A stretch of 64,000 bases of DNA from Candidatus Heimdallarchaeota archaeon (GTDB lineage: Archaea; Asgardarchaeota; Heimdallarchaeia; JABLTI01): positions 62,297 through 126,296 of the forward strand of contig DXJV01000059.1 of NCBI GenBank assembly GCA_019056785.1, in the 5' to 3' direction. Position numbers and translations under genes: made by a program. The stretch's first letter is position 1. The number at the start of each line of letters is the position of its first letter. Under the pieces are notes generated by a model. The model made no database searches and was not told the DNA's origin. It saw nothing but the letters and a program-made list of their open reading frames with translations. This document shows positions 16,549 to 17,895 of the stretch, one piece after another.

Positions 16549-17895
16549 GTGGCTTTTTGTTCATTGGTAAAACTTTTTGTAAGAAAAGATACCTTTTATT
16601 TGTTGGAAGTTATTGTTTTTCATTGGAGGAAGAAATTACTGCCAGCAAAAAGAGGAATTTGTATTGTAAAATTTGATGACAGGTTGGGCCCTGGCTGCCT
16701 TTACCAGATTGGTATAGACCGCCAATTCGCGCAGAAGGTTAGTGTAAAATCTCACATCAGTACTATGGCTCTTACTTCCTCACAAAACACTCAGGATGAG
16801 TTTATCGAATCGGTAATCCCCTTCTTGGATGAAGGATATATTGCGTATTCTAATTACTTTTTCATAAAAGATAGCTCGAGCCGTGGTGGCCGGAAAACTA
16901 TTGGGATAGTCGCTCTTGTTGACAAGTCTGAGCAAATGTTGCTATACAAATCAATACCAGAATTATCCACGGCCATAAAACAAATCGCTCAAGAACTAAT
17001 CAAATCCAATATAACATCTGATAGAGATATTACTTCTGAAATTAAAGAACAGATGCAGAAGCTGCTCAAGTTAGAATCCTTGCAACTCGATTTCGATTCA
17101 AAGAATGATTCCATTCAAATGATAAAAGAACGGGTGCTAAAAGAAGAGAAAAAGCATATCCTGGAGGCTGACCTTGAGGATAAAATCATCTCAGAAGGAA
17201 GTTTTGACTTTCTCTTTTTAAAGGTCCCAGAGGGGTTAGAAAAGGTTGTTTTTGCCTTATTGAAAAATGAACGTGTGTTGGTTTTTGGTAGAAAACAAGA
17301 GATCTCTTTAACGTTAGCAACTCTTCGGTGGTTTCTTCCACATAAGAAACTGTATAATGATGTTTGGACCGTTCCGCTGGTTGATGCCGAAGCCTTATTC
17401 TCTAGGCATGAAGATTCCGTAACATTGCATGTTTTGGGCATCGAAAGCTCACTATACAAAGACATCTTTCAGCAGACAAGTGATACTCCTATAAAACAAC
17501 CGCACAGTTCAATGGAAACTTTTCAAACAGAACAGCCGGCTTCTTTGCCTTTTCAAAGTATGGTAATAATTAATCTAGACACCAGTGAAGTAACTGGCGG
17601 CTTATCAAATGGCTTTTGCAAACAATTAGTTCAGTCCATCAAAGGGAGAACATTCGATGAAGTTTTAAAGAAAATTTCAGAGCAAATTGAATATCTCCTT
17701 GAGCGTGTGTTTGATTTGATCATTTTAGTTCTCGATGAAGCTGATAAACCAAGTTTTGAACAATTCATAGAAAATGCTATAGAAGGAGAAATCACTCTCC
17801 TTACAGCAATTATTTCGGATACCAATCCGCATGTTTTCCAAAAGCTATTAGAGAGTTTTAAAAAGCACAAACTTCCATTAGAAATTTTAACTTAA
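16549..17895 (+). CDS. Longin/uDENN plus DENN-core protein, folliculin-like
   Basis: IVKFDDRLGP (uDENN/longin start), YFFIKDSSSRGGRKTIGIVAL and VVFALLKNERVLVFG...TLATLRWFLP resemble folliculin-family N- and C-terminal motifs. Start uncertain: a GGAGG at 16625 precedes an in-frame CTG at 16639. Confidence 0.65.
   Translation: MAFCSLVKLFVRKDTFYLLEVIVFHWRKKLLPAKRGICIVKFDDRLGPGCLYQIGIDRQFAQKVSVKSHISTMALTSSQNTQDEFIESVIPFLDEGYIAYSNYFFIKDSSSRGGRKTIGIVALVDKSEQMLLYKSIPELSTAIKQIAQELIKSNITSDRDITSEIKEQMQKLLKLESLQLDFDSKNDSIQMIKERVLKEEKKHILEADLEDKIISEGSFDFLFLKVPEGLEKVVFALLKNERVLVFGRKQEISLTLATLRWFLPHKKLYNDVWTVPLVDAEALFSRHEDSVTLHVLGIESSLYKDIFQQTSDTPIKQPHSSMETFQTEQPASLPFQSMVIINLDTSEVTGGLSNGFCKQLVQSIKGRTFDEVLKKISEQIEYLLERVFDLIILVLDEADKPSFEQFIENAIEGEITLLTAIISDTNPHVFQKLLESFKKHKLPLEILT

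Follow-up and report, generated by a model that had tools for sequence, protein, structure and literature searches.

A folliculin-like gene in a Heimdallarchaeal contig

We analysed a 64,000-nucleotide stretch of a Candidatus Heimdallarchaeota archaeon genome (assembly GCA_019056785.1, contig DXJV01000059.1, positions 62,297 to 126,296 of the forward strand), here called the window, which carries a gene for a folliculin-like protein. An earlier note, made from the letters of this DNA without database searches, had described the gene as encoding a full-length folliculin/DENN-type protein with a longin domain, a DENN core and a helical tail. The maximal open reading frame (ORF), 16549..17895 (+), starts with a GTG and comprises 448 codons, stop included; its 5' 17-30 codons are probably untranslated. 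The ORF is open throughout, with no interruption, and every string quoted in the note is present in the translation: KFDDRLGP corresponds to residues 41-48, YFFIKDSSSRGGRKTIGIVAL to residues 102-122, VVFALLKNERVLVFGRKQEISLTLATLRWFLP to residues 233-264 and LHVLGI to residues 293-298. An AlphaFold2 model of the full-length protein was obtained from a 26-sequence alignment (mean predicted local distance difference test score, pLDDT, of 71.8). In this model a longin domain (35-153) is followed by a linker that is helical and in part disordered, by an alpha/beta domain (219-350) and by a confident helical tail (355-447).

A folliculin-type longin domain with a GP motif and an invariant arginine

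The longin domain is encoded by 16648..17013 on the + strand (residues 34-155). In the AlphaFold2 model its strand order is b-b-a-b-b-b-a, with the elements E35-43, E47-54, H58-73, E86-92, E97-107, E115-125 and H126-153, and its longin topology is textbook over residues 35-153. The domain is of the folliculin type. Pfam Folliculin (PF11704) covers residues 87-204 with an E-value of 6.5e-7 and a score of 29.7 bits, above the curated gathering cut-off of 23.3 bits, and the five homologues scanned scored 24.0-33.4 bits. This match is the only one to PF11704 in the 2.87 Mb genome, which is 82.5% complete. Structural comparison of the longin domain using VIA gave matches at Z-scores of 10-14 overall, including the Lokiarchaeal longin 8yqg_B (Z 14.4), the Lst4 longin 4zy8_A (Z 13.3) and chains from GATOR1-complex entries (Z about 11).

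Two features of this domain are reported for longins that act as GTPase-activating proteins (GAPs). The first is the GP motif, Gly47-Pro48 (16687..16692, +), which forms the first two residues of the predicted longin strand 2 (E47-54) and is kept in every homologue that covers this position in the 26-sequence alignment. The GP motif has been reported to be specific to the GAP-type longins FLCN, NPRL2, SMCR8 and C9orf72 and absent from FNIP2, NPRL3, TRAPP, adaptins and DENND proteins, and its reported place is either the end of the loop that leads into longin strand 2 or the beginning of that strand (PMC12290439). The second is the candidate arginine finger, Arg112-Gly113 (16882..16887, +), located in the loop that joins longin strands 4 and 5. 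Both residues are invariant in 26/26 aligned sequences, in agreement with the suggestion of the note that the arginine of its RG motif is conserved. When the family profile was searched against PDB sequences with HMMER, the best match was human FLCN (6ulg_L, 6nzd_H; E 0.06). The profile alignment reads F-F-F-x-D-x-t-A-R-G-G-K-R against F156-F-I-K-D-S-L-A-R164-G-F-Q-R of FLCN, and places Arg112 opposite Arg164. The human FLCN segment that the note had cited, FFIKDSLARGFQRWYSII, is real and is aligned by HMMER to this same region. Arg164 of FLCN is the arginine finger that is inserted into the nucleotide pocket of RagC, and its mutation abolishes function (10.1101/2022.06.28.498039).

The C-terminal half is predicted to adopt a DENN fold

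A helical linker, partly predicted at low confidence, connects the longin domain to the C-terminal half (17014..17193, +, residues 156-215; pLDDT <50 at 185-193 and 200-216). The core DENN alpha/beta domain follows (17194..17598, +, residues 216-350); it contains a disordered loop at 309-336 and the invariant motifs LPHKK (263-266) and EALFS (281-285). The all-helical tail, which corresponds to the downstream part of DENN modules, is encoded by 17599..17892 on the + strand (residues 351-448). Its helices at 355-447 have pLDDT values of 86-92, and structural alignments with FLCN, the C9orf72-SMCR8 complex and DENND proteins cover it to residues 426-445.

The C-terminal half was also folded alone (residues 209-448, 28-sequence alignment; pLDDT 81.8, predicted template modelling score 0.79), and the resulting model was compared with all 48,161 PDB cluster representatives by VIA, independently of Foldseek. 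The highest score was that of the folliculin C-terminal domain, 3v42_B (Z 11.5, 171 aligned residues, root-mean-square deviation 3.9), followed by FLCN in 6nzd_H (Z 11.2), the C9orf72-SMCR8-WDR41 complex in 6lt0_B (Z 10.8), DENND10 in 8p0v_M (Z 10.2), the C9orf72-SMCR8 complex in 7o2w_A (Z 10.1) and DENND1A in 6ekk_A (Z 8.5). The first unrelated fold, below these six folliculin, C9orf72-SMCR8 and DENND chains, scored Z 6.3. FLCN and 6lt0_B are less than one Z unit apart for this half, which is a tie. A Foldseek search agreed with the DENN assignment by VIA, with 3tw8_A as the top match (3.3e-4). At the sequence level, Pfam DENN (PF02141) gave no match to the protein at E-values up to 10 and none at the locus in the genome-wide scan, and a profile of the C-terminal half searched against PDB sequences returned chance-level matches with no DENN protein among them. 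A precomputed Pfam match to SMCR8_C (PF27109) is present on six homologues and is weak where its strength is stated. The note had drawn a second FLCN parallel in the DENN segment, which was not reproduced by sequence: neither the C-terminal profile nor Pfam DENN or Folliculin_C matched there. Because this parallel was not reproduced and the structural match is positive (3v42_B, Z 11.5), the DENN segment is assigned at the level of the fold only. On the predicted model, we assign the C-terminal half to the DENN fold, with the C-terminal domain of folliculin as its closest match.

FLCN is the closest solved structure to the whole chain

When the full-length model was searched against the PDB, Foldseek ranked FLCN first (6ulg_L, E 1e-7), then chains of the C9orf72-SMCR8 complex and DENND1B. 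Realignment by VIA gave Z 16.2 for human FLCN in 8dhb_J, with 298 residues aligned over model positions 34-426, and Z 16.1 for 6nzd_H. Chains of the C9orf72-SMCR8 complex scored Z about 13 across both domains; the DENND matches were 8p0v_M (Z 9.8) and 3tw8_A (Z 8.5 over residues 213-429). Identity to FLCN in the structural alignments is 14-18%. The differing relative orientation of the two domains keeps the global TM-scores low. A two-copy complex prediction of residues 33-448, run without controls, scored 0.00, which speaks neither for nor against dimerisation. In these predicted structures the longin and DENN halves each match FLCN best, independently of one another. The layout of longin domain, DENN core and helical tail is thus borne out by the PF11704 score above the cut-off, by the AlphaFold model and by FLCN as its best solved match, and both comparisons that the note had proposed with longin/DENN proteins, by profile (29.7 bits) and by fold (FLCN Z 16.2), were positive. 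We regard homology to FLCN-type longin-DENN proteins as almost certain.

The family is strongly constrained and largely Heimdallarchaeal

In an alignment of 25 homologues, from species that are 41-54% identical, 63 columns are invariant and column identity averages 59%. The pattern indicates strong purifying selection on the family. Since the PF11704 score exceeds its cut-off (29.7 versus 23.3 bits) and 63 columns are invariant over 25 homologues, the resemblance to folliculin is beyond chance.

A word-index search found 32 relatives, and all those that carry a source name are labelled Heimdallarchaeota or Asgard group, except for one labelled Bathyarchaeia. Scanning one genome per prokaryotic species yielded ten loci, with eight titled Heimdallarchaeota, one Promethearchaeati and one Bathyarchaeia. 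Among 201 sampled genomes of the phylum, full-length orthologues (at least 388 bits) are confined to the genus and family of the window's own genome, and weaker relatives (25-120 bits), mostly of the longin domain only, occur in some other families. An exhaustive HMMER search retrieved 68 proteins at E <= 0.001. Ten of these were looked up and seven bear names, all of them proteins from archaeal metagenome-assembled genomes; six are labelled as Asgard and one as Bathyarchaeia. The Asgard labels among the HMMER relatives are Heimdall, Promethearchaeota, Hermod, Odin, Jord and Hod. Out of nine Asgard longin-DENN groups sampled, the folliculin-like group is the sole one to pass the PF11704 cut-off.

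The start codon probably lies downstream of the GTG

The N-termini of the 25 homologues (385-430 aa) follow the pattern M-x-x-(K/R)-R-G-V-C, which matches residues 30-36 of the window protein. GTG 16549 is probably too early because the homologues begin at positions equivalent to residues 30-33. The sequence and the starts of the homologues together point to a zone at 16600..16641 (+), which contains TTG 16600, TTG 16603 and CTG 16639; a GGAGG at 16624-16628 lies ten bases 5' of the candidate CTG. In two homologues the start codon is a TTG three codons 5' of RRG in one and an ATG in the other. The real start is therefore probably TTG 16600/16603 or CTG 16639 rather than GTG 16549, a choice that leaves the domains of the protein unaffected. 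A database protein 98% identical to the folliculin-like protein has the same N-terminal extension; gene models within the family thus start inconsistently.

The folliculin-like gene is paired with a CheY-like receiver gene

The folliculin-like gene is alone on its strand, with a divergent acylphosphatase gene upstream. An operon with Roadblock/LAMTOR1-like and Rab-like genes, as known for other Asgard DENN genes, is not found at the window locus. Downstream, a gene for a single-domain CheY-like receiver (17918..18286, -; Pfam Response_reg E 2.1e-23) is convergent with the folliculin-like gene, their stops 22 bases apart, and is adjoined by genes for the small and large subunits of an aconitase-family enzyme. 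All related loci examined retain the whole block, which consists of genes for CitG, an LVIVD protein, an unassigned ~810-aa protein and the acylphosphatase, then the folliculin-like and receiver genes and the aconitase pair. Wherever a locus reaches beyond the 3' end of the folliculin-like gene, the tail-to-tail pairing with the receiver is present. Synteny alone is no argument for a functional link, because all genomes with the block belong to one family.

A second copy of the folliculin-like gene, 41% identical, is present in a related genome (G123, contig C74, L026 5682-10075). It too is convergent on an orthologous receiver gene (53% identical), although the rest of its surroundings is different: another receiver gene, a divergent gene for an Arf-type GTPase (312 aa) that carries a C-terminal extension of ~130 aa, and a gene for a 369-aa protein that contains a receiver. 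The orthologous genes of the window's genome are together on another contig (C78, L032 3583-8530): first that for an Arf-type GTPase, then those for a 366-aa protein, for a receiver and for a receiver-PAS protein. The rearranged locus of the related genome is a single case that may stem from a co-binned relative, and we take it as a lead on the client GTPase and on two-component input, not as evidence.

Two further observations concern the region upstream of the folliculin-like gene. The gene two positions upstream of the folliculin-like gene, beyond the acylphosphatase gene, encodes an 816-aa protein (13713-16163, +) that has no Pfam family and is conserved at very high scores, in the same position, in all related loci. 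At 8875-10877, genes for a citrate lyase ligase (CitC-like) and CitG are convergent, and no lyase subunits were found among the scanned neighbour genes.

Possible partners and client GTPases in the genome

There are 24 small-GTPase matches at E <= 0.01 in the window's genome. Candidate clients among them are a 298-aa GTPase of the Gtr1/RagA type, a 318-aa Arf/Rag-like GTPase and a 309-aa GTPase of the Arf type. Their coordinates are C47:66184-66780, C84:157721-158371 and C78:3583-4512, respectively. The gene for the 298-aa Gtr1/RagA-type GTPase adjoins an ESCRT-III Snf7 gene (contig C47, L002 1228-2895). We searched atlas features for the C-terminal extension of the Arf-type GTPase; the scores (0.75-0.82) were below a meaningful level, and the longin/Roadblock clusters among the matches are only a weak lead. 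The note had proposed the GTPase encoded at 60571-61161 as one to be co-folded with the folliculin-like protein. This is a real Ras/Rab-type gene, but it is 43 kb distant with nothing linking the two. It is flanked by DUF2225/TPR and low-molecular-weight phosphotyrosine phosphatase genes, all on the + strand (59757-61682).

Eukaryotic longin GAPs function as heterodimers. The folliculin-like protein is the one full-length longin-DENN protein in the window's genome, and DENN-like domains occur, in different arrangements, in at least six proteins. Genome-wide searches with Pfam Folliculin_C, DENN, NPR2 and FNIP_N found nothing at the locus and sub-threshold matches only, on contigs C74 and C76. 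A longin-only paralogue (C51:43410-44135) has the GP motif (in FDDKKGP), the arginine (in CRGKK) and a Cys-rich tail. It is directly followed by a V4R-domain gene (C51:43410-44870, L027 6420-7874), and the pair is kept in a related genome (L026 11708-13061). V4R is a proposed prokaryotic relative of the TRAPP Bet3 subunits, and the two genes could represent a minimal longin plus Bet3-like module. In a genome of the same phylum but another class (G038, C1:639108-642380), three longin-matching genes with frames of 396, 382 and 173 aa lie in tandem; these could form heteromeric longin complexes like FLCN-FNIP.

A probable arginine-finger GAP for a Rag- or Arf-like GTPase

The protein is a Heimdallarchaeal folliculin homologue. 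It probably acts as a GAP of the arginine-finger type, on a Rag- or Arf-like GTPase. The longin face that bears Gly47-Pro48 and Arg112 would dock on the nucleotide pocket of the GTPase, and Arg112 would insert as an arginine finger and complete the active site. GTP would then be hydrolysed faster and the GTPase turned off, in the manner of FLCN with RagC, NPRL2 with RagA/B and SMCR8 with Arf. The DENN half probably mediates dimerisation or docking, by analogy with eukaryotic complexes such as FLCN-FNIP. Among the genome's GTPases, the Rag/Gtr-like or Arf-like ones with C-terminal extensions are the most likely clients. Judged from the aligned residues and the predicted folds, a GAP function as such is somewhat better than an even bet. 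The interpretation given in the earlier note, an archaeal small-GTPase GAP with a tripartite DENN layout, is supported in this form, with GAP activity and client as predictions.

Several points weigh against this assignment. By sequence, none of the DENN models (Pfam DENN, Folliculin_C) matches the DENN half, and the sequence match to human FLCN is weak by itself (E 0.06). No GTPase gene adjoins the folliculin-like gene in the window, the nearest being the Ras-like gene 43 kb away. In the 82.5%-complete genome, the FNIP_N and NPR2 profiles detected no FNIP- or NPRL2/3-type partner, and searches revealed no second full-length longin-DENN protein. Catalysis, client and oligomeric state of the protein are inferred only.

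Instead of being catalytic, the protein could serve as a scaffold or adaptor in the role of FNIP, NPRL3 or C9orf72, dimerising with another longin/DENN protein and docking a GTPase or a receiver. The genome holds potential partners, namely the longin-only paralogue, which has both GP and Arg, and six or more paralogues bearing DENN domains, and the constant pairing of the gene with the CheY-like receiver gene would also be in keeping with such a role. However, the non-catalytic FNIP2 and NPRL3 lack the GP motif (PMC12290439), whereas here GP is kept wherever it is covered and the arginine is invariant; moreover, the sequence matches the catalytic-subunit family Folliculin and not FNIP. We therefore judge a purely scaffolding role unlikely.

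A guanine-nucleotide exchange factor (GEF) role, in which the DENN module would act as that of DENND1 does on Rab35 and the conserved arginine would be structural, appears a little less probable again. The C-terminal DENN fold does also match the Rab35 GEFs DENND1A/B (Z 8.5; top Foldseek match 3tw8_A, 3.3e-4), Liu et al. (10.1101/2020.10.19.343400) suggested that Asgard DENN modules have GEF activity, and among longin platforms GEFs outnumber GAPs (PMC10933270). Yet GP and the aligned arginine are reported as signatures of GAP-type longins and are absent from DENND proteins (PMC12290439), DENND1 proteins rank below FLCN in the VIA comparison, and the Pfam DENN model does not match. A fortuitous or convergent resemblance in a protein unrelated to small GTPases is very improbable: FLCN identity is just 14-18% in structural alignments and homology of the DENN half rests on predicted structure, but a curated Pfam threshold is passed, the catalytic residue is aligned and FLCN is the best structural match for each half separately.

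For the folliculin-like GAP, the receiver pairing raises the speculative and improbable scenario that a phosphorylated receiver gates its action on the Arf-type GTPase encoded beside the second copy of the pair, as two-component wiring in this Heimdallarchaeal family. If true, this would be a prokaryotic switch from sensory input to a small GTPase, and a possible forerunner of the nutrient control that FLCN exerts over Rag GTPases.

Comparison with known systems

Human FLCN (8DHB, 6NZD, 6ULG, 3V42), the RagC/D GAP of FLCN-FNIP, shares with the archaeal protein the order of longin then DENN, Arg164 aligned within a common F-F-x-x-D-S-x-A/S-R-G context, and GP at longin strand 2, and is its best structural match for both the whole chain and the C-terminal half. 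In contrast to the 579 aa of FLCN, the archaeal protein has about 415 aa, and the two are about 15-18% identical. No FNIP-like partner or Ragulator-type context was found for the archaeal protein, and its gene adjoins one for a two-component receiver, a neighbour without a counterpart in eukaryotes. SMCR8-C9orf72 (an Arf GAP) and NPRL2-NPRL3 (a RagA/B GAP) likewise have a longin domain with GP and an arginine finger, but their whole-chain scores are below that of FLCN and the genome contains no NPR2 family match. The Rab35 GEFs DENND1A/B resemble the archaeal protein in their tripartite arrangement of longin/uDENN, core DENN and helical downstream DENN (Z 8.5), but DENND proteins lack the GP motif and the Pfam DENN model does not match the archaeal protein.

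Liu et al. (10.1101/2020.10.19.343400) reported that some Heimdallarchaea encode proteins with exactly the domain organisation of FLCN; Asgard DENN, NPRL2-like and Rag components are also discussed there. The FLCN/SMCR8-type longins published for Asgards (10.1101/2020.10.19.343400; Traffic 2025, PMC12290439) agree with the window protein in FLCN organisation, GP motif and arginine finger; the GAP hypothesis is identical, as are the candidate clients (Rag or Arf-related GTPases). They differ in that the window group lies outside their LAMTOR1-like/Rab-like/DENN operon. Searches of one literature library found no biochemical test of any Asgard FLCN-type protein. The idea of an archaeal folliculin-type GAP is thus already published (10.1101/2020.10.19.343400; PMC12290439), and the window protein is a further example of it. 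What the present analysis adds is that both halves match FLCN best, that this is the only one of nine groups to pass PF11704, that it is restricted to one family, that it is paired with a receiver, and that an Arf-type GTPase is a client candidate.

In eukaryotes, nutrient signalling at the lysosome is governed by the longin-type GAP complexes FLCN-FNIP, GATOR1 and C9orf72-SMCR8, whose origin is a question of eukaryogenesis. The folliculin-like group is small and soluble-looking, and by sequence it comes closest to folliculin among the nine Asgard groups sampled. It is a convenient candidate with which to ask whether the arginine-finger/GP mechanism predates eukaryotes, and which archaeal GTPase the protein serves.

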